From: a virus
Lineage: Duplodnaviria > Heunggongvirae > Uroviricota > Caudoviricetes
Strand: one strand, 5' to 3'
Length of the DNA: 64,000 bases
IMG/VR virus record: IMGVR_UViG_2974695582_000001
Coordinates: 46,918 to 110,917 of that record
Notes under the pieces: model-generated
Told to the model about the DNA's origin: nothing
What the model saw: the letters and a program-made list of their open reading frames with translations, nothing else
Databases searched by the model: none
Program-made: the position numbers and the translations under genes
Shown: positions 6,225 to 62,398 of the stretch, piece after piece
Numbering within the stretch: the stretch's first letter is position 1
How the letters are laid out: each line of letters opens with the position of its first letter

Positions 6225-6263
6225 AATGGCGGCCCTTCGGGGCCGCAAGCTTTAAGGAGGAAA

Positions 6264-6443
6264 ATGGAAGAAACATTTGAGGTTGACCTTTCTCAATTCC
6301 TGGCTGCTATTATTGAGTCTATGGGTGGAGAAGTCAGGATTCCTTATGACACCCTGCAAAGTGATGCGAAGGGTATTGCCATCGATTTTGAAGAAGATGG
6401 CGCAATTCTTGTTCTAAGTCTAGTTGAGGAGATTCCATCATGA
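6264..6443 (+). CDS. hypothetical small acidic protein
   Basis: 59-aa ORF with AAGGAGG SD 4-10 nt upstream. Its stop overlaps the dut start (ATGA). Confidence 0.45.
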   Translation: MEETFEVDLSQFLAAIIESMGGEVRIPYDTLQSDAKGIAIDFEEDGAILVLSLVEEIPS

Positions 6444-6877
6444 TGGTCGAGTATAAGTTGCTGAGTGAAAAGGCTCAGGCTCCCGTTTTTATGCGGGATG
6501 GGGATGCAGGTGCAGATATCTGTACGACGGAGGCATTTGTTCTAGCCCCTGGTGAGCGCAAGATGGTTCATACTGGGGTGGCTATTGCTGTCCCCGATGG
6601 GTATGCTGCTTTCGTACATCCACGCTCCAGTCTTGCAGCTATACATGGTATCTCTGTTGTAAATGCGCCTGGCACAATTGACGCCGGGTATCGTGGTGAG
6701 GTTTGTGTAATTCTCATCAATCACGGAGATGTTTCTATGGAATTCTCTGAGGGTCAGCGTATTGCCCAGCTTGTATTTCAGCGTGTTGAGCATCCAAGTT
6801 TTGTATTTGTTCGTGAATTTACTGATGACCGAACAGAGCGTGGAACTGGCGGATTTGGCTCGACGGGCACGGTCTGA
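6440..6877 (+). CDS. dut: dUTP diphosphatase (dUTPase)
   Basis: Conserved dUTPase motifs: AGADI, HPRSSLA, VVNAPGTIDAGYRGEV, RIAQLV, GGFGSTG. Confidence 0.9.
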   Translation: MMVEYKLLSEKAQAPVFMRDGDAGADICTTEAFVLAPGERKMVHTGVAIAVPDGYAAFVHPRSSLAAIHGISVVNAPGTIDAGYRGEVCVILINHGDVSMEFSEGQRIAQLVFQRVEHPSFVFVREFTDDRTERGTGGFGSTGTV

Positions 6878-6894
6878 CGTAGTACAATAGAAGT

Positions 6895-7095
6895 ATGATG
6901 AACGGCTACTTCCTCAGGGGAATCACAGAAGACAATATTCTTGTTTTCAGAAGTGATGACCCTGAGGAGCTTCTACGTATTATCAAGCGACTATGCGCCA
7001 GCCGCGATAAACAAATTAGAGCGCTAGCAGAACAACTAGAAATTGACTGGAACAGTCGAGAAAATACAAGAAAAGGTAATAATAAAACTAGATGA
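6895..7095 (+). CDS. hypothetical protein
   Basis: 66-aa ORF in operon context. Confidence 0.4.
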   Translation: MMNGYFLRGITEDNILVFRSDDPEELLRIIKRLCASRDKQIRALAEQLEIDWNSRENTRKGNNKTR

Positions 7096-8117
7096 GTTTC
7101 GAAGATTTTGTTTCCAAACTGGACCCCAAGACAGCTAAGCGTCTTCAGGTTGCTCAGGAGATTGAGACTACTCAGCTCCCATTGGCAAGTATTGGTCTAA
7201 CTCATGCTCTGAATGGAGGAATTGGCCAAGGTCGCGTTTCGACATTCTACGGCAATCAGAGTAGTGGTAAGTCCCTTGTTCTTATGCAGACGATTGGTCA
7301 GCTACAGAAGCAAGGATTTGTATGTGCCTATGGAGACGCAGAGGGCACCTATACAAAGGAATTTGGAAAGCGTCTCGGAATCAACAATGATGAGTTGATT
7401 TACGTTCGTAAGAAGTCTACTGGTGCAATGACGGATAAGATTATTCCGCTAATTGAGGCTGGTGTAGACTTCCTTGTGGTCGATAGTATCAGTGACTTGC
7501 TTCCAGAAGTATTTGTTGGAACTGATGGTAATGTCAAGGAATTTGCTGATATGAAGCAGATTGGTGCTCACGCAAAGTCTATTACAGCAATGTTGAATGC
7601 TATTCACTATGCTAACGAAAAGACGGCGGTGGCCCTTATCAGTCAGACCACAACAAAGATTGAGAACACCTACGTTCAGCAGGTTCCTCACGGAGGCCAG
7701 AAGGTTTTGTTTGGCTCTTCCCAGATTGTTAAGTTGACATCTAGTAATACGGATGCCAAGCAGATTAAGGGAATGGTCCAGCAGGGTGATAGGCTTGTTG
7801 AGAAGCCAATTGGTCGAAAGGTTGATTTGCTTGTAGAGAAGAACAAGTTGGGTCCTCAGCATCGTCGTTGTTCATACGACATGTATTACGACGGCCCGGC
7901 TGTAGGTGTTGACCTTGCTGGTGAGGTCTTTGATATGGCTGTAGACTTTGGTGTTGTAAACAAGTCTGGAGCATGGTACGATTACCAGGATAAGACAATT
8001 TACACTCAGGGTCGTCCAGCGTTCCTTGAGGAGATTAAGAAGGATGATGAGCTGTACTCTCAGTTGAAGAAGGAGGTTAACATCGCTCTAAATGGTGGTG
8101 TTATTGACGACGAGTGA
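7092..8117 (+). CDS. RecA/UvsX-like recombinase
   Basis: Walker A GNQSSGKS in a RecA-like context (GGIGQGRVSTFYGNQSSGKSLV). 341 aa. Confidence 0.75.
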   Translation: MSFEDFVSKLDPKTAKRLQVAQEIETTQLPLASIGLTHALNGGIGQGRVSTFYGNQSSGKSLVLMQTIGQLQKQGFVCAYGDAEGTYTKEFGKRLGINNDELIYVRKKSTGAMTDKIIPLIEAGVDFLVVDSISDLLPEVFVGTDGNVKEFADMKQIGAHAKSITAMLNAIHYANEKTAVALISQTTTKIENTYVQQVPHGGQKVLFGSSQIVKLTSSNTDAKQIKGMVQQGDRLVEKPIGRKVDLLVEKNKLGPQHRRCSYDMYYDGPAVGVDLAGEVFDMAVDFGVVNKSGAWYDYQDKTIYTQGRPAFLEEIKKDDELYSQLKKEVNIALNGGVIDDE

Positions 8118-8305
8118 AGTTTAGTGATTTCGTTGCTCAGGAACAAGAGGCAGAGGCTCCGAAGGGAATTCCTGTTGATGGTGGCTTTAGCTGTCAGACA
8201 TGTTATGAGCAATGCGACGAGGCGGAGTATTTCCGCATTGAAAAGATTTTGAAGTGGAAGTGTTCGGAGGGACACATTTCCTATGTTGAGGACTTTATTC
8301 TCTGA
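8114..8305 (+). CDS. hypothetical Cys-rich protein
   Basis: 63-aa ORF with C-x2-C...C motifs. Confidence 0.4.
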   Translation: MKFSDFVAQEQEAEAPKGIPVDGGFSCQTCYEQCDEAEYFRIEKILKWKCSEGHISYVEDFIL

Positions 8306-11174: not shown

Positions 11175-11211
11175 AGGTGCTGGGGCTCGTCCCCAAGCTT
11201 TAGGAGGAGAA

Positions 11212-18963: not shown

Positions 18964-19017
18964 GACCCCGTCCGGGGTTAAGCTTCTAGCAAGTCAAACA
19001 ACGGAAGGAATCAAGAA

Positions 19018-19442: not shown

Positions 19443-19569
19443 CGATGGGGGATGTAGAAGACCTCCAGGAGTATCGAAGGCCCCTAAATTAATGGGGAGC
19501 GCACCTGAGGATACGAAAACGATACACAGGGGACGCCCATCGCAGTATTGTGTCTCTTCTACAAGCTTC

Positions 19570-21687: not shown

Positions 21688-21849
21688 TAGCCCCTAAAGA
21701 TTTCGGGTCGGATGTTCTTTGGTTAACTCAATTGGAATGAAAAGTTCTGGGTTCGAATCCCAGCGGGTCCACTCTTGGGCCTGTAGTTTAACTGGCAAAA
21801 CTAAAACCCGAGGAACGCTTATATATCCGTGATTATCTTTAGGGGCTAA
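21688..21849 (+). ncRNA. YrlA-like Y RNA with embedded tRNA-like module, locus 4
   Basis: 13-bp terminal stem TAGCCCCTAAAGA/TCTTTAGGGGCTA. Inner TTCGGGTCGGATG...GGTTAACTCAATTGGAATG Y motif. tRNA-like T-arm ctgggttcgaatcccag followed by cgggtcc. 3' partner tATATATCCGtga. Followed by AAGCTT. Confidence 0.55.
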
Positions 21850-21874
21850 GCTTTTGTCTAGAAAAGGAGAGACA

Positions 21875-22426: not shown

Positions 22427-22498
22427 TTGAATAGCCGGATGGTCTCCGGCAAGCTTCTAACAACAATATGCCCAGTTTGGGCCGAAAGGATATATAAA

Positions 22499-24115: not shown

Positions 24116-24167
24116 AACACTGCCCCCTCTTCGGAGGGGGCAAGCTTGTTTAAGGAGAAACATTTGA

Positions 24168-25848: not shown

Positions 25849-26442
25849 ATGAGACTAAGAAAGTTTCATGGAGGTTGGATGCCAAAGAGAAAGTTTTTCT
25901 ACGATACTGAATTTCATGAAGACGGAAATACCATTGACCTAATTTCAATTGGTATTGTTCGTGGAGATGGAAAAGAATATTATGCAGTATCGTCAGAGGC
26001 AAATTATAAGCGGGTTTATGAGAACAGTTGGCTCATGAATCATGTAATGAATACTATCCCATACATCGTGGTAGAAATTCCAAATGATGGTGGATATACA
26101 ATTATTCCAACTGGTCCTAATGTGAAGACTCGTGCTCAGATTAGGGATGAGATTCTTGACTTCATCGGTGAAAGCCGAGGAGAATTTAATGACCCACATG
26201 GAGAACCGAAGGCAGAGCTTTGGGCGTGGTATGCTGATTATGACCACGTTGCTTTGTGTCAGTTGTTTGGTAAGATGATTGACCTTCCCGAAACCTTGCC
26301 GATGTTCACCAGAGATTTGCGTCAACATTGGGAGTACAAGGGGTATCCTGAGCTTCCAAGACAGCCTGAAGGAGAGCACAATGCTCTTGACGATGCTAGA
26401 CACAATCTGGTAATGTGGAAGTATCTGGAAGGGCTTGATTGA
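25849..26442 (+). CDS. DEDDh 3'-5' exonuclease (RNase T/oligoribonuclease-like)
   Basis: Exo I motif FFYDTEFHEDG. Exo III motif HNALDDARHN (H-x4-D). Confidence 0.7.
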   Translation: MRLRKFHGGWMPKRKFFYDTEFHEDGNTIDLISIGIVRGDGKEYYAVSSEANYKRVYENSWLMNHVMNTIPYIVVEIPNDGGYTIIPTGPNVKTRAQIRDEILDFIGESRGEFNDPHGEPKAELWAWYADYDHVALCQLFGKMIDLPETLPMFTRDLRQHWEYKGYPELPRQPEGEHNALDDARHNLVMWKYLEGLD

Positions 26443-27012: not shown

Positions 27013-27102
27013 ATGAGAGGCAGCGATGTAGTATGGACAATTGCAGGTGTGCTGTTCGCAATTGCTTTGATTGTATGGCTTGCGGACAACGTAAGCTTCT
27101 GA
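27013..27102 (+). CDS. hypothetical 29-aa membrane peptide
   Basis: ATG 6 nt after AAGGAGG. A single hydrophobic helix. Confidence 0.3.
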   Translation: MRGSDVVWTIAGVLFAIALIVWLADNVSF

Positions 27103-27181
27103 TACAGCGAAGCTTGGCTGGACCGATACGAACCCCATCGTATCCTACGAAAGTAGCCCGAGGGTTAGGGACCAGCATTTT

Positions 27182-40067: not shown

Positions 40068-40292
40068 ATGTCCAAGTGGATTCAGCCGGGTAACCGGATT
40101 ATGGACAAGGCGTATTTGCGCGATGGCAGCGTGACATATACTGGTGAGCAGCTAGTGCTAGCACTTTTGTTGCACACCAAGGGTCGAACTAAGCGAGGCT
40201 CTGGTGAGCTTGAGCAAGTTGCTAAGATGCTTGATGACCCAAACATCAATCGAAAGAGGACACCCCGTAGGAAGCCTAAGAAGGCAGCCTGA
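40068..40292 (+). CDS. hypothetical protein
   Basis: 74-aa ORF after GAGAAGG. Confidence 0.45.
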   Translation: MSKWIQPGNRIMDKAYLRDGSVTYTGEQLVLALLLHTKGRTKRGSGELEQVAKMLDDPNINRKRTPRRKPKKAA

Positions 40293-40327
40293 CGGGGTTT
40301 TCCCGTTTTACGATAAAGGAGAATGAA

Positions 40328-40681
40328 ATGGCACAGATAATTATTAACCGTTCTGAATCCCGCTGCGGTAATTGTGGAAGGCAAGCCTTTATGGAAGAGA
40401 CTGGCCATTATACAGTTGCTGGATATAAGGACAATGGTGAGCCTGGTTGCGGAGAGGTCTGGGATAGTGTAAGCTCTGACTATCTGAACATTCCGGCGAT
40501 GCTTGTTGCTGGTGAAGATGGATACTGGTTCGCAGAAAATTTGCGAGGGCTTCCTGTTTATGATGCTAGCAGTCCAGAACCGATTGGAGTTTATGGTGGC
40601 CCGTCAAGAAAGGATGCGGAAGTGTCAGCGCTGCGGCGTCAAGCGGATATCCCCGTTTCTTCAGACGACGATTTGCGGTGA
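40328..40681 (+). CDS. hypothetical protein
   Basis: 117-aa ORF after AAAGGAGAA. Confidence 0.45.
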   Translation: MAQIIINRSESRCGNCGRQAFMEETGHYTVAGYKDNGEPGCGEVWDSVSSDYLNIPAMLVAGEDGYWFAENLRGLPVYDASSPEPIGVYGGPSRKDAEVSALRRQADIPVSSDDDLR

Positions 40682-40716
40682 ATGCAAGGCTCTCGATATT
40701 ATTTTGGAGGTAACTA

Positions 40717-40884
40717 ATGGCAGATTGGTACAGGACACACAATGTGAGTCCGGAAGCAGTGAGTGAAGAAGAGTATCGTGATTGGCTTGCTGTGAATGTG
40801 AGTGTTGAAGAGGCAGACCGTTTCTGGTATGGTGTTGAAGACGCAGAGTTTCTAGGGGATGATGACTATGGCCGGACTTCCTAA
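40717..40884 (+). CDS. hypothetical small acidic protein
   Basis: 55 aa after GGAGG. Confidence 0.35.
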   Translation: MADWYRTHNVSPEAVSEEEYRDWLAVNVSVEEADRFWYGVEDAEFLGDDDYGRTS

Positions 40885-41095
40885 GAAACTGTACTATGTT
40901 CTTATCAAGCCTGGTGGTAAGCCTCTTGGGTATGGTAAGAAGGGTGGCGGTAAGTACACAAGTCGTTCCGCTGCTGAATCTCAGGCAGAAGATTTGAAGA
41001 AGCAAGGTGTCAATGTGACTTTGTGGGAATCTTCAGAGATTGATTGGACTGAAGTTCCAATTTCGGTTCCAGAGAACCAGGAACCTCTATGGTAA
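40859..41095 (+). CDS. hypothetical protein
   Basis: 78-aa ORF. Confidence 0.4.
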   Translation: MMTMAGLPKKLYYVLIKPGGKPLGYGKKGGGKYTSRSAAESQAEDLKKQGVNVTLWESSEIDWTEVPISVPENQEPLW

Positions 41096-41772
41096 AGGTA
41101 CTATTCGTAACTGGTGCCGGGATTTCTGCTAATGCGGGAATCCCAACATACCGTGACGGAGGTTCATCATGGAAGGATGCCGACCTTGAGAAAAAGTCTC
41201 ACGCGTCCCGTTATGGCAACCACCTAGATGAGCTGTGGGATAAGCATTGGGGGCCTGTAGCAAAGGCTATGGGGCAGGCTGAGCCGACACAGACTCATCG
41301 TGCGATTGCTGAGTTTCAGAAGGACAACCCCAGCATCGTAGCAACTCAGAACATCGATGACTTGCACGAACGGGCGGGGTCTGATAACGTAGCTCATGTG
41401 CACGGAAGTATGGTCATTAAGTGCATCCGATGTAAGCGAAGCCACCTTGAAACAAAGTGGTTTGGCAAGGGTGCACCTGTATGTCCTCACTGTGGAAAGT
41501 CTAAGACTCGTCCAGATGTGGTACTCTTTGGTGAGAAGTTGGACCTGAAGATGTTTGCTGCACTTGAGTCTTTCGCTAAGCATGATGCAGATGTTATTGT
41601 TGCTGTTGGAACCTCACTGAATGTGTTTCCTGCGGCGGGTTTGGTAATGGATAATATCGCAAAGTCTGTCATCATCAATAAGGAGAAGACACCTTTCGAC
41701 AAGTTCGCGTACAAGGTCTACAATGATGATTGTGATTCCGTAATTGATGAAGTCCTAGGAGGACTAAACTAA
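41089..41772 (+). CDS. Sir2-family NAD-dependent protein deacylase / ADP-ribosyltransferase (sirtuin)
   Basis: Sir2 family motifs: GAGISANAGIPTYR, QNIDDLHERAG, catalytic HG (AHVHGS). Zn ribbon CIRC...CPHC. Also RPDVVLFGE. Confidence 0.85.
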   Translation: MVKVLFVTGAGISANAGIPTYRDGGSSWKDADLEKKSHASRYGNHLDELWDKHWGPVAKAMGQAEPTQTHRAIAEFQKDNPSIVATQNIDDLHERAGSDNVAHVHGSMVIKCIRCKRSHLETKWFGKGAPVCPHCGKSKTRPDVVLFGEKLDLKMFAALESFAKHDADVIVAVGTSLNVFPAAGLVMDNIAKSVIINKEKTPFDKFAYKVYNDDCDSVIDEVLGGLN

Positions 41773-42249
41773 ATGGTAACGTATGTCAAGGGTGATGCGA
41801 CCAATCCTCAGGGTGATGGTCCAAAGATTATCGCTCACGTCTGCAATGATGAGGGCGGATGGGGAGCAGGATTTGTTCTGGCAGTTGATAAGTTGTCTCC
41901 GCGCCCGAAGAATTTTTACAAGAATGAGTACGCGTTCTATATGAACGCTGGTTATGCATTCATGCCTCTTGGCGTGATTGACGTTGTTCCTGTTGGTGGG
42001 GATGTTTATGTGTGCAATATGGTTGCCCAACATCGCACAATTCGTTCAGTTGAAAAGCCTATCTGTTACAAGTCTCTTGAGATTTGCCTGACTAAGTTGG
42101 CTGAGTATGCTGTTGCTGAAAACGCAACAGTTCATATGCCTCGCATTGGCTGCGGTCTTGCGGGTGGCAACTGGGATGTGGTAGAGTCAATTATCAACCG
42201 CACACTGACTCTTCGAGATGTGGATGTCACTGTGTATGACCTTCCGTAA
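41773..42249 (+). CDS. macrodomain protein (ADP-ribose binding/hydrolase)
   Basis: Macro-fold motifs: VKGDATNPQGDGPKIIAHVCNDEGGWGAGF and IGCGLAGGNW. Lies immediately after the sirtuin gene. Confidence 0.65.
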   Translation: MVTYVKGDATNPQGDGPKIIAHVCNDEGGWGAGFVLAVDKLSPRPKNFYKNEYAFYMNAGYAFMPLGVIDVVPVGGDVYVCNMVAQHRTIRSVEKPICYKSLEICLTKLAEYAVAENATVHMPRIGCGLAGGNWDVVESIINRTLTLRDVDVTVYDLP

Positions 42250-42306
42250 GGAGGGTGCGGGGAAACCCGCAAGCTTCATTGGTTCGAAAACAAAGGAGAA
42301 TAACCA

Positions 42307-44232
42307 ATGCGACCTAATGCAAATGTTGCTGAACGCCAGGGTGACCTTGGTGGACAGAAGATTGCAATGACGTTCGACCAGAATAGCCTTGCGCATCTTA
42401 TGAGGGTTATGACTGACCTGTATTCTGACCCTGAGCTTGCAGTTATTCGCGAGTATAGCACAAATGCGTGGGATTCCCACAAGGCCGCTGGTGTTACCCG
42501 CCCAATTGAGGTTACGCTTCCTAATGGTCTCTCGCCTTTCTTCAAGGTGAAGGACTTCGGTCTTGGTATGGATATCTCTGATATTGAGAATATCTATTCT
42601 CAGTATGGTGCTTCTACTAAGCGTGACACTGATGACCAGGTTGGTATGCTTGGGCTTGGTTGTAAGTCTGCTCTTTCTTACACTCAGCAGTTCAATGTTG
42701 TTGCTGTAAAGAATGGCCGGAAGTACAATGTGGCTGTAAGTCGTACCGAAGATGGTTCTGGAATGATGGAAATTGTTCTGGACACTGAAACTGATGAGCC
42801 AAATGGTGTTGAAATTATTGTTCCGGTAAAGCGTGGACATAACTTTCAGCGGAAGGCCATTGAGTTCTATCAGTTCTGGGAAAAGGGCAGTGTCCTGGTT
42901 GATGGAACTGAGCCGAATTACATTTCTGGCCGGGAGGTCAAGGATGGTATTCTGATGGTTCCTGACCTGTCCAAGGATTATCTTGTTATGGGTAATGTTG
43001 GATACCCTCTAGCTGATAATTATCAGCTTGGTAATCGTAACTACTACTCAAAGTATGGTGTTGTGGCTCGTGTGGACATTGGAGATGTGAATTTCACTCC
43101 TTCCCGTGAGTCTCTGCACTACACTAAGATGACTGAGGCAACGATTAACCGGATTCGTGAGGAATTCAAGGCTGGTTTGGACGGAATCGTTGAGCGTGAT
43201 GTTGCTGCATGTAAGTCTCAGGAAGAGGCTCTGAATACTTATCTTGAGTGGTACAATCTTCTTGGTGGTGGCTATAATCGCTATCCATTCCCTGACTGTG
43301 AGTACCAGGGTAAGAAGGTTCCTCTGAAGATTAACCATCCGTTCCTGTCTTACAAGGTGAATCACACGCGGTATGCTGTTGATTCTCATGCATGGATTGA
43401 CATTAAGACTGCCCGCGATACTCCGATTATTTATGGATTCGCTGGAGAAAAGATTAGTGGTCATCAGCGTGAGAAGATGCGTACATGGCGAACGATGAAT
43501 GGCTTTGAGTCCAACAACATTCTTATTTGCGACGAGCTTCCTGAGATTCTTGAGGAAGACTGGATTCCTGAGTCTAAGATTTATTCTTGGGAGGATGTTA
43601 AGAAGGCTAAGGCTCCGGGACAGAAGACTGGTCGTCCGAAGGCTATGTTTGATGTGTGGCTTCCGGGGGCTGTCAGAATCAAGTCGGTAACGGCTGACGA
43701 TTTTCCTGACGACGCTAGGATTGCTCTGGTGGCTCCGAGGGACGTTCCTAATAACAAGGTGGTTCTAAAGTTTATTGAAGAGCATGACGATGTCATGATT
43801 GTTCGCCTTCAGTCTTATCGTTGGGAGAAGTTCAGGAAGTCGTACCCGCAGGCATTGAATCTTGGTGACATGCTTGCTAAGATGTACAACGAGTCGGTAG
43901 AAGCACTGACCGATGATGACAAGTTCAACTTGGGCCTTGACTATCGGGTGCGAAGTCTGCTACAGTCACTTAATGAGGCAGAAATCAATGACCCTGAGCT
44001 TGTGAAGGCTATCATTGCTGCAAAGGAGGTCACTCCTAGTGCTACGCTCAAGCGATATGAGCAGATGAATGACCTGTTTTCCGGGCATTACTTTGTCCGA
44101 AGGTCTAGTCTGAACATCAATAGGATTAACCCGCTTGAGAAGTACACTCTGCTTCAGAATTCGTACTACAATTACGATGTGAAGCACGCTACTGTTTACA
44201 TTAATGCCGCTTATGAGGCTTTCGTAAAGTGA
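42307..44232 (+). CDS. GHKL-family ATPase domain protein (possibly rIIA-like)
   Basis: GHKL motifs: N-box EYSTNAWDS, G1 DFGLGMD, G2 GMLGLGCKSALSY. 641 aa. Followed by a 336-aa partner ORF. Confidence 0.6.
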   Translation: MRPNANVAERQGDLGGQKIAMTFDQNSLAHLMRVMTDLYSDPELAVIREYSTNAWDSHKAAGVTRPIEVTLPNGLSPFFKVKDFGLGMDISDIENIYSQYGASTKRDTDDQVGMLGLGCKSALSYTQQFNVVAVKNGRKYNVAVSRTEDGSGMMEIVLDTETDEPNGVEIIVPVKRGHNFQRKAIEFYQFWEKGSVLVDGTEPNYISGREVKDGILMVPDLSKDYLVMGNVGYPLADNYQLGNRNYYSKYGVVARVDIGDVNFTPSRESLHYTKMTEATINRIREEFKAGLDGIVERDVAACKSQEEALNTYLEWYNLLGGGYNRYPFPDCEYQGKKVPLKINHPFLSYKVNHTRYAVDSHAWIDIKTARDTPIIYGFAGEKISGHQREKMRTWRTMNGFESNNILICDELPEILEEDWIPESKIYSWEDVKKAKAPGQKTGRPKAMFDVWLPGAVRIKSVTADDFPDDARIALVAPRDVPNNKVVLKFIEEHDDVMIVRLQSYRWEKFRKSYPQALNLGDMLAKMYNESVEALTDDDKFNLGLDYRVRSLLQSLNEAEINDPELVKAIIAAKEVTPSATLKRYEQMNDLFSGHYFVRRSSLNINRINPLEKYTLLQNSYYNYDVKHATVYINAAYEAFVK

Positions 44233-44292
44233 GTAGTGGCCCCCGAATGGGGGCAAGCTTCTGCAAATAACTAATATTAGGAGAAAATACAG

Positions 44293-45303
44293 ATGAAGTA
44301 TAATCTCGTTCAGGTTGAGGATGGCGGAGAAGCGAACCTTACCGTCGTTCACGATGGAGAGATGTACGTCGCTACGGACAGTCACCCCAATTTTCAGCGA
44401 ATTGTTGCTGGTCTGGCTGTAGGAGATGAAAGTGTAGTCGAACTCTTTGATGTTCAGAAGACTGCACAGAGGCGATTCGACCGGCTTTCCGAGCGGGTTA
44501 CTGTCGCAAATGGCAAGGTGTACCTTGATGGTGAAGAGGCTGACAATGCTCTTACTCAGCAGGTTATTCACTTTGTAAATCAGGGTGTTGAGGATTTCAA
44601 GCCTCTTGTTGCCTTCTTTGAGAAGGTTGAGACTAACCCAAACAGTCACAGTCGAGAGCAGCTTTACACTTGGCTTCGTGACCGCAACATTACCCTTACT
44701 GAGGATGGTAACTTCATTGCTTACAAGGGTGTTCGTGTTGAGAACGATGAGTATTTCAGCATTTCTACCGGAAAGGCTATTTCGAATGGCGTAGAGTACA
44801 ATGGCGCAATTCCTAACCCTCTCGGTGCTATCGTTGAGATGCCTCGTTCTGAGGTTCAGCACAATCCTGCGGTTGGCTGTCACACTGGTCTGCACGCTGG
44901 TACGTGGGGTTACGCGTCCGGGTTTGCTCGTGGTGCTGTTCTGACCGTTGAGATTAATCCTCGCGACGTGGTTTCTGTTCCTACGGACTGTGATGCTGCT
45001 AAGTTGAGGGTCTGTCGATACATTGTCAAGGACGTTACTGAGACTGAGCTTGACGCAGCAGTCTACAGCACGTACCCTGACCTTGATGGTTACGACGACG
45101 AAGAGTATGACGACTACGGCTATGAGGACGACGACGAGCCGGATGTTGACACGGAAGAGACTCCTCAGGTACAGTCTGAGGAGAAGGAAGTAACCGAGTC
45201 AACTGGTGTCGTGACTGCTGATGTGTCTAGTGCAATTACCTGGCGTCCTGTAGAGTCCAACTGGGCTCCGGAGGACCCTGACGCACCTTGGAACCGAGTC
45301 TAA
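44293..45303 (+). CDS. hypothetical protein (putative rIIB-like partner), acidic C-terminus
   Basis: 336 aa. Acidic C-terminal region (DLDGYDDEEYDDYGYEDDDEPDVD), lying about 60 residues before the end. Adjacent to the GHKL gene. Confidence 0.3.
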   Translation: MKYNLVQVEDGGEANLTVVHDGEMYVATDSHPNFQRIVAGLAVGDESVVELFDVQKTAQRRFDRLSERVTVANGKVYLDGEEADNALTQQVIHFVNQGVEDFKPLVAFFEKVETNPNSHSREQLYTWLRDRNITLTEDGNFIAYKGVRVENDEYFSISTGKAISNGVEYNGAIPNPLGAIVEMPRSEVQHNPAVGCHTGLHAGTWGYASGFARGAVLTVEINPRDVVSVPTDCDAAKLRVCRYIVKDVTETELDAAVYSTYPDLDGYDDEEYDDYGYEDDDEPDVDTEETPQVQSEEKEVTESTGVVTADVSSAITWRPVESNWAPEDPDAPWNRV

Positions 45304-45345
45304 TCGGTTCGGCCCTTCGGGGCCAAGCTTTGAAAGGAGAATGTC

Positions 45346-45513
45346 ATGTTTGACCCTGAAGACTGGTTTCCTGAGGATGTTCTAGAGGAGCTTGAGGAAA
45401 GCGACACAAGCCTTGTTGACATTCTCCCTGAGGAACTGCTACAGTATCTGCAAGACGAAGATGATGACCGAAATCATTGGGACCGATACGACGAGATGCC
45501 TTGGAATGGGTGA
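45346..45513 (+). CDS. hypothetical small acidic protein
   Basis: 55 aa after AAAGGAGAA. Confidence 0.4.
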   Translation: MFDPEDWFPEDVLEELEESDTSLVDILPEELLQYLQDEDDDRNHWDRYDEMPWNG

Positions 45514-45518
45514 TATTA

Positions 45519-46298
45519 ATGTCTAAGATTATGATTCTTGGTGACGTTCATGGCGAGACTAAGTGGCTTGTCAACATGATTAACAAGGCAAAGCGGGCGG
45601 GTGTCAAGAAGATTGTTCAGGTTGGTGACTTCGGAATGTGGACTCACGAGGCTGAGGGTCACCGGTTCCTTGACCGCTCGAATGAGGAGCTTCGTAAGCA
45701 TGGAATTAAGCTCTATTTCGTTGGCGGTAACCATGAGAACTGGGACCACCTAAATTGGCATGAGAAGAATGGCGCAAAGGACTGGAATGGACATACGTTC
45801 ATTCGGTCTCACATCCTTTACACTGGTCGAGTTAATCGCTGGGTTTGGGGTGAGAAGGGTGAGGAGAAGGTTTTCCAGGCCGTTGGTGGCGCATGGTCAA
45901 TTGACCGTCGTCGGCGGGTTGTGGGAAAGACTCTTTGGCTTGATGAGACTATTCCAGACCAGGTTGTTTATGGACTGGAGAAGGCCAATCGTAAGTGTGA
46001 CTATCTGTTCACTCATGATGGTCCTACCTGTCTTCCCTATGCCAATCTGAAGCCTGACCCTGACTCTCATATCCATCGTCAGAAGATGGACCGAATTGGA
46101 CTTGCAACCCGGCCGAATCTGTGGTTTCATGGTCACTATCACAAGTGGATGGAGTACAGCTTTGAGCACACGCAGAGGAGCGATTTCGCCTTTGTGTATG
46201 GTCTTGACCGGGATTACCAGTTCTATTCTTATGTGATTCTGGACACAGTTTCCGATGATGTGGAGACTGCAACAGGTAAGGTTATTGAGCACAGTTAA
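45519..46298 (+). CDS. calcineurin-like metallophosphoesterase (Ser/Thr phosphatase fold)
   Basis: Motifs ILGDVHGE, VGDFG, GGNHE and HGHYH. Confidence 0.75.
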   Translation: MSKIMILGDVHGETKWLVNMINKAKRAGVKKIVQVGDFGMWTHEAEGHRFLDRSNEELRKHGIKLYFVGGNHENWDHLNWHEKNGAKDWNGHTFIRSHILYTGRVNRWVWGEKGEEKVFQAVGGAWSIDRRRRVVGKTLWLDETIPDQVVYGLEKANRKCDYLFTHDGPTCLPYANLKPDPDSHIHRQKMDRIGLATRPNLWFHGHYHKWMEYSFEHTQRSDFAFVYGLDRDYQFYSYVILDTVSDDVETATGKVIEHS

Positions 46299-46387
46299 GT
46301 CATTTGCCATTTGAAAGTATTTCCAATACAATAAAATGTATGGAGGTCAAAGCCTCCGACAGATTTTTGAGGAGGTGTACAATTCAA

Positions 46388-46825
46388 ATGGCAAATGAAG
46401 AGAAGAACGAGCCTCGTATCCTTTCTGATGACGAGCGTGCTGCTTCCCTAAAGGAGGCTGACGCAAAGGCTGCAAAGGCAGATTACAAGCCTGTTACTGC
46501 TCAGTCTGCTGTTGCGGTTCACGGACCACACGGTGTTGAGGAGGCTGCTGCTAAGCGTGCGAAGGATGCTGGGGTTACTGACCCTGCCTTCGTTAATTAC
46601 GCTGAGGCTCTGGAGAATTACCAGGCCCGTCCAGACGTTGAGCCACTAGATGAGCGTCGCGCTCGTGAGGGTGGACGTGATTTCCAGGCTGCTGCATTCC
46701 GTCGTGAAATCGGTGGAACTGACAATTCTGGAGTTACCACTTCTGAGGACGTTACTACTGGTGCGGCTGAGGATAACAAGGACAACAACAAGACTGTTGC
46801 TGCTCGTAAGCCTGCTTCCAAGTAA
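46388..46825 (+). CDS. hypothetical Ala/Lys-rich protein
   Basis: ATG after GAGGAGG. 145 aa. Confidence 0.45.
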   Translation: MANEEKNEPRILSDDERAASLKEADAKAAKADYKPVTAQSAVAVHGPHGVEEAAAKRAKDAGVTDPAFVNYAEALENYQARPDVEPLDERRAREGGRDFQAAAFRREIGGTDNSGVTTSEDVTTGAAEDNKDNNKTVAARKPASK

Positions 46826-46837
46826 GGTTAACGATTT

Positions 46838-46883
46838 TGCTAAAAACCCGGTGTTGACAAAACACCGGGTTTTTGCTTATACT
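46838..46883 (+). promoter_or_regulatory. terminator hairpin overlapping promoter TTGACA-N18-TATACT
   Basis: aaaaACCCGGTGTTgacaAAACACCGGGTttttg. -35 at 46854-46859. -10 at 46878-46883. tRNA-Lys(TTT) lies downstream. Confidence 0.55.
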
Positions 46884-46894
46884 AGGTAAACAAT

Positions 46895-46967
46895 GATTCG
46901 TTAGCTCAGTTGGCAGAGCGGGGAACTTTTAATTCCACGGTCCTCGGTTCGAGTCCGAGACGAATCA
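46895..46967 (+). tRNA. tRNA-Lys (anticodon TTT)
   Basis: Acceptor gattcgt/acgaatc. D tagctcagttggcagagc. Loop cttttaa. T-arm ctcgg-ttcgagt-ccgag. Confidence 0.6.
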
Positions 46968-47037
46968 CTATTGACACAGCAGTGTCAAGAATGTTAAGAT
47001 GTTTGTATAATGCAACTTAAGCGAAAGGTAAGGACTA

Positions 47038-47271
47038 ATGCCTAATCTCGATTACAAGGCAGCACACCGATTTGTTCGTGAGCAGCGTAGGGCTGGTAAT
47101 GATGTCAGGTGGGAGCAGTGGGACATGGTTTTCTGGAAGCCCACTCGTCATGGATTTACTAGCACTAATGGTGCTTTTCGGAATGGGCGTTGGGGCGTAG
47201 AGTCTCGAATTGCCGTCAATTCTGATGGAGTGTGGATGGTCCCTAAGAAGAATGTCAAGACTACTCGATGA
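47038..47271 (+). CDS. hypothetical protein
   Basis: 77-aa ORF. Confidence 0.45.
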   Translation: MPNLDYKAAHRFVREQRRAGNDVRWEQWDMVFWKPTRHGFTSTNGAFRNGRWGVESRIAVNSDGVWMVPKKNVKTTR

Positions 47272-47560
47272 ACTAGGTCTGGACCCTGAAGATTTTGAAT
47301 GGCAAGACTTGGCTCTGTGCTCTAATATGCCGACGAGTTTCTTTTATGACCAGTATGAGTCAGACCAAGAAACGGCAAGAGCTACAGACCAAGTCTGTCT
47401 TCATTGTCCAGTTCAGAAGCAGTGCTTTTTCGCAGGAGCCGAAGGAGAGCACGGTGTTTGGGGCGGGGTATACTGGAATGGCGCTGGTAAACCCGACAAG
47501 AACAGAAACTCACATAAGACTGAAGAAGTGTGGGAAGATATACGGAATAAGGTAGCATGA
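47252..47560 (+). CDS. WhiB-like (Wbl) Fe-S transcription factor
   Basis: C-x26-C-x2-C-x5-C (ALC...VCLHCPVQKQC) followed by a GVWGG turn. Actinobacteria/actinophage-specific family. Confidence 0.75.
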   Translation: MSRLLDELGLDPEDFEWQDLALCSNMPTSFFYDQYESDQETARATDQVCLHCPVQKQCFFAGAEGEHGVWGGVYWNGAGKPDKNRNSHKTEEVWEDIRNKVA

Positions 47561-47817
47561 GTCTATACACAAACAATGTAAGAAAGATTTTCAAGACCAT
47601 GCGAGCCCCGTATCCCAACTTTGTGGTTGACATTGTTGAATATCCTGACTACCTCTCTTTGAGAGTGTACAAGGACAATATCGAATCTTTCAGTGAGCCA
47701 CAGAAGGTGGCACTTGCTGAATATCTCTATCAAGTAAGAGATGCAATTAGGTCCGAATGTAAATGTCACATTGAAGGAGTCGAGAATGCGCCACCGTCTA
47801 GAGGAAGACAGGGATAA
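47557..47817 (+). CDS. hypothetical protein
   Basis: 86-aa ORF. Confidence 0.45.
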   Translation: MSLYTNNVRKIFKTMRAPYPNFVVDIVEYPDYLSLRVYKDNIESFSEPQKVALAEYLYQVRDAIRSECKCHIEGVENAPPSRGRQG

Positions 47818-47983
47818 CTATCCTCTGATTTACATCATTCAGGAGGGTGTTTGGGGGTTTCTCGTTCAAGAGAACGCCTTCTACTCTCAGGTGAAGTATA
47901 GCGTTGACGGATTTGAATATAATACCAGTTTGGACAATGATGAGTTCATCATTCCAAACCAGATTGGATACGAGAGAGGTTAA
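47786..47983 (+). CDS. hypothetical protein
   Basis: ATG after AAGGAG. 65 aa. Confidence 0.4.
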   Translation: MRHRLEEDRDNYPLIYIIQEGVWGFLVQENAFYSQVKYSVDGFEYNTSLDNDEFIIPNQIGYERG

Positions 47984-48222
47984 TGAGCCAAGCGGAATGC
48001 AGTTCTTGCGGGAAGCAGCACAATGACCTGAGAGCACATAAGTCGAAATTGCTAGTTGGTACTACGTTTCTTATGTGCCCTACCTGTCGCGCTGGGAAGA
48101 TGGAGCCTAGATTTGCCATCATCCTTGCTGGCAGGTCTCAGGGAGTGGATGTTGTTTCAGAGTATGTTAGGAATAGGCGATATTGTGGCGCTGATATCCT
48201 GGCTAAGGAACTAATGGTCTAA
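47983..48222 (+). CDS. hypothetical Cys-rich protein
   Basis: 79 aa. Contains CSSCG...CPTC. Confidence 0.45.
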   Translation: MSQAECSSCGKQHNDLRAHKSKLLVGTTFLMCPTCRAGKMEPRFAIILAGRSQGVDVVSEYVRNRRYCGADILAKELMV

Positions 48223-50054: not shown

Positions 50055-50258
50055 AATTATTGGGCTTCGGCCCAAGCTTTGTAAGTGGATGGAATGCGAT
50101 AGAGATAAAGGCCGTAAGTAACGTACGTATCTTCAGCGGTGGGGACTCTAACGATGCTGTTCTCCCGTCCCCAAGGGTCCAGATTGGCAGCGAAACTTAC
50201 AAATGTGAGGTTGCATCACGGCTTCGGGCCTCCAAAAATAATCATGAAACCGTGACCC

Positions 50259-51561: not shown

Positions 51562-51604
51562 ATTTTATGGCAAATTTTGACGAGGGTTCGTAAAGGGCCT
51601 TCTA

Positions 51605-52154: not shown

Positions 52155-52204
52155 GATTTCGGGGAGTTTACTCCCCAAGCTTCCATTACAAAAAGGAGAA
52201 GATA

Positions 52205-52663: not shown

Positions 52664-52705
52664 TACAGTTGGGGCGAAAGCCCCAAGCTTTCGTAAAGGA
52701 GGACA

Positions 52706-53017: not shown

Positions 53018-53058
53018 TATCTCTGCCCGAAAGGGCAAGCTTTCAAAAAGGAGGAAGT

Positions 53059-53874: not shown

Positions 53875-53931
53875 AACCCGGCAAAATTTGGGGGCCTTTC
53901 GTAAAGGCTCTCAAGCTTGTATACTAGACCT

Positions 53932-54902: not shown

Positions 54903-54954
54903 TCTCGGCGGGTATCGTAAGGTACCCGCAAGCTTCCAACAAAGGAGAAATGAC

Positions 54955-55134: not shown

Positions 55135-55191
55135 AGAGCCGGGCCGAAAGGCCCAAGCTTCCTACCAACTAAACAGAAAAGGATTAGGAAA

Positions 55192-55428: not shown

Positions 55429-55485
55429 TGTACAATTAGGCTAGGGGAGAAATCCCCTAGCTTTTTTGTATTGGAGGAAGCTTGT

Positions 55486-56650: not shown

Positions 56651-56668
56651 AAATCTTGTTGGGAGGGG

Positions 56669-56697
56669 TTGACAACTTCTCCCAAGCTCGTTAAACT
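56669..56697 (+). promoter_or_regulatory. promoter TTGACA-N17-TAAACT
   Basis: Lies within a gggaggGGTTGACAACTTctccc hairpin context. Confidence 0.45.
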
Positions 56698-56962: not shown

Positions 56963-57037
56963 GAAAATTATGGCAGATTTTCGGGAGGGTTCGTAAAGGA
57001 CCCTCCTAAGCTTTTGTACCTAACAAAGGATAATAAC

Positions 57038-57286: not shown

Positions 57287-57335
57287 TACAGTTGGCCTTC
57301 GGGCCAAGCTTCCAATTAGGAAAAGGAGAGATAAG

Positions 57336-57983: not shown

Positions 57984-58031
57984 GGTCTTAATGCCCCGAA
58001 AGGGGCAAGCTTCCCAACTGATGGAGAGATA

Positions 58032-58503: not shown

Positions 58504-58547
58504 AATTCTGGCGGGTTCGTAAGAGCCTGCCAAGCTTAGGAGGAATC

Positions 58548-59365: not shown

Positions 59366-59551
59366 ATGAACTCAGGAGGAAATATGTATCTGGATTTCAG
59401 CATGAACCCCGGCCTAGATGTTTGGCTAGGCATTCGTCCACCTGAGTGGGACGAAGATGATTTCGATGATTGGGAGGACGAAGAGTTCAAAGTAAACCAG
59501 AAGCGTCGAATCATTCGGATTCGGAAGTCAAATTTCCGGCGAGAATTTTAG
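59366..59551 (+). CDS. hypothetical acidic protein
   Basis: 61-aa ORF. Confidence 0.4.
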   Translation: MNSGGNMYLDFSMNPGLDVWLGIRPPEWDEDDFDDWEDEEFKVNQKRRIIRIRKSNFRREF

Positions 59552-59613
59552 AGGGTTCGTAAAGGACTCTTTTGCCCCTTCGGGGGCAAGCTTACTAGGG
59601 TTGAGGTGAAGGG

Positions 59614-60875: not shown

Positions 60876-60884
60876 TGTACAGTA

Positions 60885-61256
60885 GTGGTCAGTGGGGGAG
60901 AGAAAAGCTCTCCCCCCAACCTAAGGAGATTTATGTACGACTCTTCAGCACGTCGTCGCGGTGAGGATACTGGCGTTCGTCTTGCCAATTCAAATCACCG
61001 GGCAGACCGACTTTATCGCGCGGTGGCCAATAAGCTGCTTGACGCTATGGAAAACTACACTTTCAATGTCCAGACGTTCGCTAATTTCCTGGTAAAGACT
61101 TCTCCTGATGTCATTAAGCACCGACTTATGCAGTTCGCACTCGCTATTGCAGATGCAAATGCTGATGAGTACATGGGCGGTAACATGACTGATGGACCTA
61201 TCAATGGTATGCGTGTGAAGGAAGCTGTAGAAGTGTACAACCTTCCCAGGGGTTGA
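60885..61256 (+). CDS. hypothetical protein
   Basis: 123-aa ORF. Confidence 0.45.
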   Translation: MVSGGEKSSPPNLRRFMYDSSARRRGEDTGVRLANSNHRADRLYRAVANKLLDAMENYTFNVQTFANFLVKTSPDVIKHRLMQFALAIADANADEYMGGNMTDGPINGMRVKEAVEVYNLPRG

Positions 61257-61282
61257 CAGAAGCTTCTCCAGCCTGCTAGTCT
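61253..61282 (+). promoter_or_regulatory. promoter TTGACA-N18-TAGTCT
   Basis: Upstream of the DUF932-like gene. Confidence 0.35.
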
Positions 61283-61323
61283 TTAGACATCGAGCAAGAC
61301 ACACCAACTAAGGAGACGTAAGA

Positions 61324-62346
61324 ATGCCCGCTGGTATCGAGACGTACAAGGAAATGGCCGCTTTCGCTTCTCTCCGTCAGCCTGCATGGCATGACCTCGG
61401 AACGGTTTTTGACAAGCCTGTTTCGACTGAGGAAATGCTTAAGCTGGCTCACATGCACAACTGGAATCTGCGATTTGAGGATGCATCCGACTGGATGCCT
61501 GGCTTCACTTTCGTGGATGAGACGCTTCACGTGGTTCGTGATAATCCGTTCATTCCCGGTCAGAAGGATGTTCTGGGAACTGTCGGTGGTCGGTATAACA
61601 TCTTCTCGAATGAGCAGATTTTCGACTTCGCTGACACTCTGACGGATGGTCGGCGTCGGTGGGAAACGGCCGGAAGCATTAAGAATGGTCAGAAGGTTTT
61701 CGCTACTCTTGTGGCAACTGATGACCTTGTCCTTGACCCGAATGGTTCTGCTGACACCATCAAGCGCTATATCATGCTGGTTTCCAGCCATGACGGTTCT
61801 ACCACCATGATTATCAAGATGGTGAATACCCGAGTGGTTTGCCAGAATACCCTTAACATTGCTCTTGGTGAGAAGGGTGCTGAGTTCAAGATTCGCCACA
61901 CTCAGGGAATGGAAACCAAGATTCAGGATGCTAAGAAGGCTCTGAGTCTGGCGACTGTTTACGACGAGGCTTTCGAAAAGGGAATGCAGGCTCTCTTTGA
62001 GGCTGAGATGACTCTTACTCAGTTTGAGAAGATTGTTATGGATATCTTCCCGGAGCCGGAAGAGGATGTTCGTGGAAGCCAGAAGAAGTGGGACACCAAG
62101 ATGGACACCATTCTGAACATCTGGCAGAATTCCACTGGTGAGGTTGAGAATCTGCCGAATTCCGCTTACAAGGGATTCAATGTTCTCACTGGATGGAACC
62201 AGTGGCACCGTGGAATCCGAAAGGACAAGAGCGGTAACCCGAACACGGAGAACTTCCTTGCGGCTGGTGCTGGATTCGATGTCAAGACGAACGAATTCCG
62301 CACTGAGGTTTTTGAGCGTATGCAGGAATTCGCTCTGACTGTCTGA
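61324..62346 (+). CDS. phage/plasmid-like protein, possibly DUF932 (TIGR03299) family
   Basis: 340 aa. The N-terminal PAWHDLG-like segment recalls the DUF932 VPWHGLG motif. Tentative. Confidence 0.3.
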   Translation: MPAGIETYKEMAAFASLRQPAWHDLGTVFDKPVSTEEMLKLAHMHNWNLRFEDASDWMPGFTFVDETLHVVRDNPFIPGQKDVLGTVGGRYNIFSNEQIFDFADTLTDGRRRWETAGSIKNGQKVFATLVATDDLVLDPNGSADTIKRYIMLVSSHDGSTTMIIKMVNTRVVCQNTLNIALGEKGAEFKIRHTQGMETKIQDAKKALSLATVYDEAFEKGMQALFEAEMTLTQFEKIVMDIFPEPEEDVRGSQKKWDTKMDTILNIWQNSTGEVENLPNSAYKGFNVLTGWNQWHRGIRKDKSGNPNTENFLAAGAGFDVKTNEFRTEVFERMQEFALTV

Positions 62347-62398
62347 GGCTTTACGGCGGCCCCTTCGGGGGCCGCAAGCTTTTATCTAAGGAGATAAC

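Follow-up and report, generated by a model that had tools for sequence, protein, structure and literature searches.

The 64,000-nucleotide stretch analysed here, referred to as the window, carries numerous copies of a short element in which a GC-rich hairpin is followed immediately by the hexamer AAGCTT. The element is most likely an RNA-level module that marks gene ends in the early and middle (non-structural) transcripts of the Loccivirinae, the phage subfamily to which the window belongs. According to the best model that could be built from sequence comparison, which we hold tentatively, the hairpin protects the 3' end of the upstream mRNA while an endonuclease cuts within AAG|CUU. The source genome was identified by megablast, in which positions 40000-48000 of the window were 100% identical to Streptomyces phage Comrade (MH651172 / NC_048728; Stanwilliamsviridae, Loccivirinae, Gilsonvirus; host S. 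griseus). Base 1 of the window corresponds to base 46918 of the record and the window spans record bases 46918-110917. This offset was verified on the 129,015-bp Comrade genome reassembled from three pieces. All genes of the window are located on the + strand, including 31 tRNA genes and one tmRNA gene, while Comrade genes 3-18 form a minus-strand arm outside the window.

The window contains 47 copies of the hexamer AAGCTT, while dinucleotide shuffles lead one to expect 21.0±4.2 (shuffle maximum 32). Of these sites, 28 have a perfect stem containing four or more G-C pairs directly 5' of the hexamer, an adjacency that was obtained 0.10 times on average, and twice at most, in 200 dinucleotide shuffles. 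Both the abundance of AAGCTT and its non-random hairpin context, as claimed in an earlier reading of the sequence (hereafter the original prediction), are thus well above chance. No hexamer adjoining hairpins in the real window sequence is conspicuous, apart from AAGCTT and the versions shifted by one base. A hexamer-blind census of the whole Comrade genome recovered 357 GC-rich perfect hairpins, 40 of which are directly followed by AAGCTT, while the second-commonest hexamer occurred 2 times. The intergenic location also proposed for the element is supported by the fact that 55 of the 84 genomic AAGCTT sites lie within intergenic DNA, which represents 12% of the genome. About 44 good copies were identified in Comrade, all of them between 48.6 and 121.0 kb of the record, in the replication and small-gene region. 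No copy was found in the structural-gene block (record 6-48.6 kb) or in the last 8 kb of the genome. All 23 sites listed in the original prediction exist, with corrections of 1 nt for three positions (18979, 24143 and 58533) and of 10 nt for two others (53027 and 62386, truly 53037 and 62376). Hairpin-abutted copies at 1737, 22451, 37395, 52177 and 63721 were absent from that list.

The hexamer always starts immediately after the last stem pair, and the stems are 5-12 bp long and fold with energies between about -6 and -20 kcal/mol. The UUCG, GAAA and other GNRA tetraloops noticed earlier were counted 10, 9 and 4 times, respectively. On the upstream side, the distance from stop codon to hairpin has a median of 6 nt (interquartile range 5-8) and falls between 1 and 9 nt in 34 of 44 copies. 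On the downstream side, the distance from hexamer to the next start is loose, with a median of 23 nt (interquartile range 18-36, range 9-306 nt). The hexamer is separate from the Shine-Dalgarno sequence, which in many copies follows 0-10 nt downstream. The element had been described as start-associated, with a spacing of 6-20 nt to the Shine-Dalgarno sequence and start codon, and had been likened to the start-associated sequences of cluster K mycobacteriophages. Neither the label nor the analogy could be maintained, since the element keeps no fixed distance to either signal, its position being tied to the preceding stop codon and to the hairpin.

Across Loccivirinae sequences, exact AAGCTT was found after 113 hairpins and a one-mismatch version after 25. 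In the latter, position 6 is altered in 19 cases and position 1 in 2; position 5 is invariant. The constraint on the motif weakens with distance from the stem. The two bases 3' of the hexamer are pyrimidine-rich, with A rarely occupying the first of them (9%). The core motif is AAGCU, asymmetric and with a relaxed position 6. From the unequal constraint at positions 1 and 6 it follows that the HindIII palindrome (84 in the genome, a count proposed earlier as a check) is incidental and does not represent a symmetric DNA site. Stem sequences are unrelated among copies and among orthologues, and AAGCU alone is common to all.

A total of 111 non-identical stems preceding AAGCT in Comrade and its relatives were pooled. 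Non-Watson-Crick pairs in these stems comprised 36 G·U against 2 A·C (p = 5e-9), an A·C pair on this strand being equivalent to a G·U wobble on the opposite strand. Among 63 tetraloops, UUCG (21) and GNRA (28) accounted for 49, and none of the 63 was of a reverse-complement type (CGAA or the GNRA complement). In 35 Comrade copies folding is more stable on the + strand, and in 5 on the - strand. In the minus-strand arm the orientation is reversed: a copy located between two tRNA-Thr genes, and kept in Comrade, Jada and Blueeyedbeauty, has minus orientation. Its stems covary (gtcggtccc/gggaccgac, ggtggttctg/cagaaccacc, ggcggttcc/ggaaccgcc) and are followed by AAGCT. A second site in this arm can be read in either orientation and is ambiguous. 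The strand-specific orientation claimed originally is confirmed. Taken together, the G·U excess, the RNA tetraloops and the transcription-linked orientation indicate selection on RNA and not on DNA, and the element most likely acts in the sense strand, as RNA.

Conservation in related phages, suggested earlier as a check, was observed. In Jada, a member of the same genus with ~82% identity in alignable DNA, hairpins adjoin 26-30 of 39 AAGCTT sites in the right 50 kb. Orthologous intergenic regions were recovered in 21 cases (flank identity 75-96%), and hairpin and AAGCT are retained together in 18 of them, with a different stem sequence in all 18. Some of these stem changes are compensatory, as for ggcccttcggggcc in Comrade and gccccttcgggggc in Jada, and others are wholesale replacements. 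A scan of IMG/VR with one hairpin-plus-hexamer pattern revealed multi-copy carriers only among contigs aligning to Comrade, namely Gilson, Annadreamy, Blueeyedbeauty and metagenomic relatives. No motif was detected after hairpins in the 50 kb sampled from Mildred21 (Boydwoodruffvirinae, the sister subfamily) or in the 40 kb sampled from Rhodococcus phage Peregrin. As judged from these genomes, the element is a trait of one lineage, the Loccivirinae, with strong purifying selection on structure and pentamer. Among the matches listed in a scan of genome contigs, scattered single hits and an unrelated tandem repeat (see below), but no Streptomyces, were present, which is uninformative on host use. 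No description of the element was found in the literature searched, including that on Stanwilliamsviridae and the BE/BK clusters, and genome announcements searched by term made no mention of hairpins, motifs or promoters.

A GC-rich stem-loop located just 3' of a gene (median 6 nt after the stop codon) is what is expected of an intrinsic terminator. However, the bases adjoining the stem are AAG in every copy, in place of the U-tract of such terminators, and 2 of 28 window copies passed a lenient scan for a T-tail (5 T in 8 bases). Canonical terminators made of a hairpin and a T-run form a separate class in Comrade, with examples at 55438-55470 and after the capsid and tail genes. Purified actinobacterial RNA polymerase was shown to require the U-tract even in the presence of NusA and NusG, and the same authors pointed out that nuclease cleavage can mimic tail-less termination (PMC3993855). 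The element is not a canonical terminator.

Promoters were predicted by scanning the intergenic regions of the whole genome for TTGACA-N16-19-TANNNT, which gave ~35 clear candidates. Examples in the window are located at 15523, 18663, 20186, 46854, 49691, 51083, 56669, 58748, 59614, 60244 and 63707. TAAGGT, TAGAGT and TACAGT are common -10 elements of the TTGACA-N17/18-TANNNT promoters. TTGACA is strongly biased towards the + strand (100 occurrences against 43 for its reverse complement), and several -35 hexamers are located within hairpin loops. Six elements lie in series between the predicted promoter at 51083 and the canonical terminator at 55438, an interval with no full-consensus promoter (TTGACA -35) and with weaker consensus matches. 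Because six copies occupy one predicted operon, and because a Shine-Dalgarno sequence follows many hexamers by 0-10 nt, RNA polymerase must read through the elements, as far as consensus promoter and terminator predictions can be trusted.

Promoters of the TTGACA-N17/18-TANNNT type overlap with ~8-10 of the ~44 copies, mostly to the right of the window. Examples in the window or at its edge are found at 38499-38518, 56661-56689, 59572-59593, 61234-61265 and 63697-63726. In these copies TTGACA is situated in the loop, overlaps the TT of the hexamer or follows the hexamer. The hexamer itself falls in the spacer at 1-11 nt from the -10 element, and its position tracks the hairpin and not the promoter. 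A reading of AAGCTT as a promoter part was rejected on the same ground, as the hexamer follows the hairpin end instead of the -35 and -10 elements and often lies too close to the Shine-Dalgarno sequence for a transcription start to fit in between. The terminator-restart module put forward in the original prediction found no support either, as most copies have no promoter between hexamer and Shine-Dalgarno sequence and nearly all failed the T-tail scan.

Additional indications came from the tRNA genes. Tetraloop hairpins devoid of the hexamer are present 2-4 nt upstream of many tRNA 5' ends, both in Loccivirinae and in Boydwoodruffvirinae. In the window, on the + strand, a GAAA hairpin (29230-29241) ends 3 nt before the 5' end of tRNA-Tyr, which is an RNase P site. 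UUCG hairpins at 35021-35032 and 39475-39486 lie 2 nt before tRNA-Ser and 3 nt before tRNA-Val, respectively, and a hairpin of the TTCGTAAAGG type (51582-51602) lies 2 nt before tRNA-Gln. The element at 50060-50079 (+) illustrates both arrangements: in Comrade its UUCG hairpin is followed by AAGCTT and tRNA-Gly is 179 nt away, while in Jada 'tat' and tRNA-Gly come directly after this same hairpin, without the hexamer. Hexamer and RNase P cleavage site appear interchangeable after the hairpin, which suggests that the hexamer also marks an endonucleolytic cut. Since the hairpin is located upstream of the conserved, presumably single-stranded motif, and since like hairpins precede tRNA 5' ends, it would serve as a 3'-end protector for the upstream mRNA and not, as had been proposed, as a 5' hairpin of the downstream one. 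The spacer between hairpin and tRNA is often AT, AAT or TAT (window 19372-51677 and two further loci). The annotated 3' ends of most tRNA genes are not CCA. A link to tRNA 3' processing by RNase Z was considered and discarded, as no AAGCTT-like motif occurs in the tRNA trailers. AAGCTT adjoining the 5' end of tRNA-Pro, as reported earlier, was confirmed with the hexamer at 19563-19568, one base before the tRNA start at 19570.

Among the roles envisaged in the original prediction, one at the RNA level fits best, as a processing signal or as a site for a factor. In the model that we favour, a stable stem-loop, usually with a UUCG or GNRA loop, would form in the mRNA ~6 nt after the stop codon and RNA polymerase would transcribe through it. 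An endoribonuclease would cut the single-stranded AAGCU(U) at the base of the stem. The upstream mRNA would retain a 3' hairpin with an overhang of at most 3 nt, resistant to 3'-5' exonucleases, and the downstream cistron would be freed as an RNA of its own. At hairpins with a tRNA gene 2-4 nt downstream, RNase P would make an equivalent cut, and these hairpins have no hexamer. The likeliest cutter would be the host RNase E acting at AAG|CUU, with a dedicated phage or host factor reading hairpin base and AAGCU as the alternative. Single-stranded RNA is cleaved by mycobacterial RNase E in the context RR|CNU. C occupies +1 in >90% of the mapped sites, which are over-represented between genes transcribed together (PMC10641625; PMC6448022). 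The sequence AAG|CUU matches this context. Term-seq data of Streptomyces have revealed that 3' ends at hairpins without U-tract are the largest structured class, 353 against 182 with U-tract (PMC8269248).

Several observations weigh against this model. First, we infer cleavage, the enzyme and the stabilising effect wholly from sequence. The consensus of RNase E is much looser, with a free position 5 and a preferred U at position 6, whereas here position 5 is invariant and position 6 relaxed. Because of this different pattern of constraint, a generic RNase E preference fails to explain the stringency of the motif. The specificity has furthermore been documented for mycobacteria and not for Streptomyces. 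Mildred21 infects the same hosts and has no element in the region sampled, which would call for an explanation of its own if a host enzyme alone were responsible. No recognisable endoribonuclease was found in Pfam screens of ~160 phage proteins (sets of 143, 68 and 53). Within the genes of the element-bearing region, bare AAGCTT is present at ~0.24 per kb, where the shuffles predict 0.33; this deficit is mild and non-significant, so avoidance of the motif was rejected. Finally, 32 of 44 minimum-free-energy folds show weak pairing of the CUU of the hexamer with purine-rich sequence further downstream. The predicted mean unpaired probabilities are 0.61, 0.73 and 0.53 for the bases of AAG and 0.32-0.38 for CUU.

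The partner of CUU(YY) in these folds is the Shine-Dalgarno region of the next gene, as for CUUUC with GGAGG at 52685, an arrangement that is anti-Shine-Dalgarno-like. This predicted pairing could modulate translation or could be a by-product of composition, the count being uncontrolled. As an explanation of the motif it was rejected, since it cannot account for the invariant AAG.

A more specific factor, possibly encoded by the phage, is plausible. In its strongest form, this would be a 'punctuation code' dedicated to the Loccivirinae, in which a sequence-specific endoribonuclease or RNA-binding factor reads the base of any stable hairpin together with AAGCU, turning long early transcripts into defined, hairpin-capped monocistronic mRNAs, with tRNA genes as alternative marks. 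We regard such a code as possible, although the chances are well against it. If true, it would represent a new RNA-processing signal and a new enzyme specificity in actinobacteria or their phages. The Pfam screens identified a 3'-5' exoribonuclease of the Rv2179c-like type (gp108), an RNase_T-like exonuclease and a weak match to DUF4258 (E = 0.003). The candidate gp108 (window 25879-26439, +) is annotated as 'DnaQ-like DNA polymerase III subunit' and gave a full-length Rv2179c-like match of 47 bits, for a cut-off of 27. A 3'-5' exoRNase of the phage, for which gp108 is a candidate, would make 3' hairpins on phage mRNAs especially relevant. Weak matches to DUF4258 (E = 0.003) and to KOW, uL24-like and SH3 domains (E = 7e-4 to 9e-3) were given by one of the 53 right-arm proteins and one of the set of 68.

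Next in probability, though unlikely, comes a non-canonical terminator or attenuator, possibly factor-dependent, which would stop or pause some of the polymerases and thereby provide graded expression and insulation. Terminators lacking poly-U have reportedly been found in the early region of actinophage phiC31. The location just after stop codons and the GC-rich stems suit such a role, several copies overlap promoters which they could insulate from read-through, and many Streptomyces 3' ends do occur at hairpins without U-tracts (PMC8269248). Against it stand the AAG that always adjoins the stem, the near-complete failure of the T-tail scan, the U-tract requirement of actinobacterial RNA polymerase and the possible nuclease origin of tail-less ends (PMC3993855). 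Moreover, canonical terminators exist as a separate class in the same genome, the six serial copies of one predicted operon and the hairpins located 2-4 nt before tRNAs need read-through, and simple termination leaves the invariant AAGCU unexplained.

Somewhat less probable still is a site for a sequence-specific RNA-binding protein of phage or host that does not cleave, with a function in repressing or activating translation of the next gene, in the loading of an antitermination complex (nut-like) or in stabilisation. A variable stem beside an invariant pentamer is a typical picture where proteins recognise the base of an RNA helix, the constraint decays away from the stem up to the relaxed position 6, and the restriction to one lineage fits with a co-evolving phage factor. 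The weak pairing predicted in 32 of 44 copies, between CUU(YY) and the Shine-Dalgarno sequence that follows, could be added to these arguments. However, the variable distance to start codon and Shine-Dalgarno sequence (9-306 nt) counts against a direct translational operator, the Pfam screens gave no candidate RNA-binding protein, and the substitution of the hexamer by a tRNA 5' end would remain unexplained.

A recombination or module-boundary sequence, comparable to the PeSL (promoter-early stem-loop) cassettes of T4-like phages and loosely to the attC sites of integrons, would serve the exchange of small cassettes and have a secondary role in expression. We consider it improbable. The elements do occur in a hyperplastic region of small genes, and synteny with Jada is broken at 19 of 38 junctions that carry an element and at 27 of 79 that do not, a small excess in raw counts. 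A subset of copies are also true composite hairpin/promoter units like PeSLs (PMC4122927). Nevertheless, homologous recombination needs more than the 5-6 common bases, and the stems have no sequence in common. The preference for G·U over A·C, the tetraloops of RNA type and the orientation linked to transcription all speak for RNA, and not DNA, as the level of selection. No recombinase is known to act on this site.

The least probable reading, to which we give hardly any credit, is a DNA-level site, either a palindrome for a dimeric DNA-binding, restriction or methylation protein or a promoter part (-10-like cAAGCT, -35 starting with TTG): the hexamer is indeed perfectly palindromic, some copies have a TTGACA or TTGCCT -35 element that begins with the TT of AAGCTT or a tAAGCT that conforms to TANNNT, and the phage encodes a DNA methyltransferase, but variants at position 1 and position 6 number 2 and 19, the hexamer tracks the 3' end of the hairpin and not the -35 or -10 element, with offsets of 1-11 nt to the latter, a Shine-Dalgarno sequence or start follows many hexamers by 0-11 nt and leaves no space for a transcription start, the G·U pairs of the stems would be A·C mismatches on the other strand, and the methylase resembles C5-cytosine methylases only weakly. 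A symmetric DNA palindrome was rejected because of the asymmetry between positions 1 and 6 together with the G·U and A·C counts. The methyltransferase, gp7, is encoded on the - strand outside the window, and its C5-cytosine methylase match (16 bits) is below the cut-off. AAGCTT contains AGCT.

Intercistronic hairpins in phage mRNAs are known as terminators, RNase III sites or stabilisers. In T7 early mRNA, a handful of intercistronic RNase III sites form irregular double-stranded structures of ~20 bp that are cut inside the stem. As in T7, the hairpins described here are intergenic and, by prediction, read through; in T7 a host endonuclease cuts and leaves a protective 3' hairpin on the upstream mRNA. 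In contrast, the Comrade stems have 5-12 bp and tetraloops, the signal is presumably single-stranded and lies outside the stem, there are ~45 copies, and cleavage is only proposed. The extended duplex of about two turns with an internal cleavage site, characteristic of T7-type RNase III sites, is absent from the element. The RegB nuclease of T4 cuts GGAG within the Shine-Dalgarno sequence of early mRNAs and thereby inactivates them. Like the present motif, RegB sites are short sequence signals in intergenic regions of early transcripts and are absent from late genes, cutting having been shown for RegB and being proposed here. Unlike them, the Comrade motif is situated upstream of the Shine-Dalgarno sequence and beside a hairpin, and no RegB-like protein was found in Comrade.

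The start-associated sequence (SAS) of cluster K phages, reportedly described by Pope et al. in 2011, is said to be a 13-bp motif that includes the ribosome-binding site and lies a fixed few bases from the start. Like the element, it is a short motif conserved between actinophage genes and repeated many times on the coding strand. The element differs by its distance to the start of 9-306 nt, by a motif outside the Shine-Dalgarno sequence and by its anchoring to upstream stop codon and hairpin, and thus has neither the fixed short start distance nor the overlap with the ribosome-binding site of SAS. The 13-bp consensus has no evident resemblance to AAGCU(U) with a variable hairpin. REP/BIME-like families, in which the copies share the palindrome sequence, do not accommodate the element either, since only AAGCU is shared. 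With the mitochondrial model of tRNA punctuation, in which RNase P and RNase Z act, the element has in common a structured unit at gene boundaries, tRNAs and elements appearing mutually substitutable after the same hairpins. However, the phage element is not tRNA-like and has no determinants of RNase P or RNase Z.

Actinobacterial RNase E sites (Martini 2019, Zhou 2023) are single-stranded and over-represented between co-transcribed genes, and their RR|CNU fits AAG|CUU. The known motif is, however, degenerate and has no obligatory hairpin, whereas the phage motif is near-invariant at five positions and always abuts a stem. PeSLs combine a sigma-70 early promoter with a terminator-like stem-loop in T4-like phages and were proposed to act via DNA homology (PMC4122927). 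In both systems small units of stem-loop and promoter flank small early genes in hyperplastic regions, and ~8-10 Comrade copies carry TTGACA in the loop or beside the hexamer. Most Comrade copies, however, have no promoter and the only shared sequence is AAGCU(U). With a sigma-70-type early promoter fused to the stem-loop in ~8-10 of ~44 copies, the element as a whole is not a PeSL.

The novelty resides in a five-base, presumably single-stranded motif kept invariant beside ~45 freely evolving stems per genome across a phage subfamily. If the motif is a cleavage signal, it would offer a high-copy natural set of substrates for studying endoribonuclease specificity in Streptomyces, be it of RNase E or of a new enzyme. 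It would also account for the way in which mRNA stability is set gene by gene in a lytic phage of 129 kb that has ~230 genes on one strand, and provide a compact part (~25 nt) by which synthetic operons of Streptomyces could be insulated or processed. For genome annotation, hairpin-AAGCU elements should not be labelled terminators, and the motif marks true gene ends among tiny open reading frames.

The individual copies of the window, all on the + strand, are described in the following from left to right. The first (1718-1742) is composed of the hairpin tgggaggaaccttcctccca and AAGCTT, 4 nt after the primase stop codon, with a promoter-like site (TTGCCT-N18-TACAAT) starting in the hexamer. The second, with a UUCG loop (6229-6252), is located 4 nt after the DnaE stop codon and 11 nt before the next ATG. 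A copy follows the RuvC-like gene (11181-11200), another has a G·U pair in its stem (18965-18985), and the Ro-like gene is flanked by one copy upstream (22434-22456) and one with a UUCG loop downstream (24121-24147). Further to the right are a UUCG copy (32488-32510) and a copy in which the Shine-Dalgarno sequence is directly 3' of the hexamer (37379-37400). The hexamer following the hairpin gcggcttcggccgc (38499-38518) provides with its TT the start of a TTGACA-N18-TAAGAT promoter of tRNA-Leu. The next copy (38875-38895), with a UUCG loop and a G·U pair, has an orthologue in Jada with another stem and the same hexamer. Copies with GAAA loops are found at 40026-40049 and before rIIA (42257-42276), the latter with other stems and the same hexamer in three relatives. 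Between rIIA and rIIB (44239-44260), relatives have other stems followed by AAGCTC. The copy made of ggcccttcggggcc and AAGCTT, for which the compensatory change in Jada was mentioned above, lies at 45311-45330.

The six copies of the predicted operon P(51083)-T(55438) are located at 52161-52182, 52669-52690 (GAAA), 53024-53042 (GAAA), 53888-53918 (TTCGTAAAGG type with two G·U pairs), 54908-54935 (GUAA) and 55141-55160 (GAAA), and the operon is ended by the contrasting canonical terminator at 55438-55470. They are followed by a variant (56661-56689) with TTGACA in the loop, AAGCTC as hexamer and TAAACT as -10 element, at a site kept in four relatives. Then come copies of the TTCGTAAAGG type (56983-57013) and with UUCG (57292-57311), GAAA (57992-58012) and GUAA loops (58509-58537), the last with G·U pairs and with other stems in three relatives. 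The UUCG copy at 59572-59593 is succeeded by a TTGACA-N17-TAGAGT promoter. An ambiguous copy (61234-61265) has a weak hairpin overlapping a gene end and TTGACA-g-AAGCTT within a promoter spacer. The last two are a UUCG copy with 8 G-C pairs (62356-62381) and a promoter-embedded one (63697-63726) with TTGACA in the loop, AAGCTT in the spacer and TACAGT as -10 element.

Some hairpins form a sub-family sharing loop and upper stem, GGGTTCGTAAAGG(N)CCC (the 'TTCGTAAAGG' type). Members were located at 51582-51602, 53888-53912, 54908-54929, 56983-57007, 58509-58532 and ~59550-59571, and are followed by AAGCTT in some cases, by a tRNA in one and by a second hairpin in one. The same sequence recurs in Jada and in metagenomic relatives.

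Minor observations concern other RNAs and isolated hexamers. In the spacer between tRNA-Ala and tRNA-Lys, two AAGCTT located 11 nt apart (27093-27098 and 27110-27115), without upstream hairpin, could base-pair with each other. A tRNA-like T-arm fragment (caggttcgaatcctg…) is present between tRNA-Ser and tmRNA (30540-30590), with AAGCTT at 30585. The region 30560-30802 gave a borderline Rfam match to 'tmRNA_permuted' (49.5 bits against 47) overlapping the standard tmRNA. The AAGCTT reported next to a YrlA-like RNA exists (21848-21853), but that RNA is a sub-threshold Rfam match only (21742-21802; YrlA, Y RNA-like; 28 bits against a gathering score of 69, E = 6e-4), ~45 nt before the hexamer and ~700 nt upstream of the Ro-like gene. 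Unrelated tandem repeats of 103 bp, each with ctgccccaagaggggcAAGCTT, occur in a metagenome-assembled genome of Sulfurimonadaceae (JBNKJB010000004.1, ~4549-4860). Similar matches were obtained in several Sulfuricurvum metagenome-assembled genomes. The repeat copies are conserved in sequence, unlike those of the phage element.

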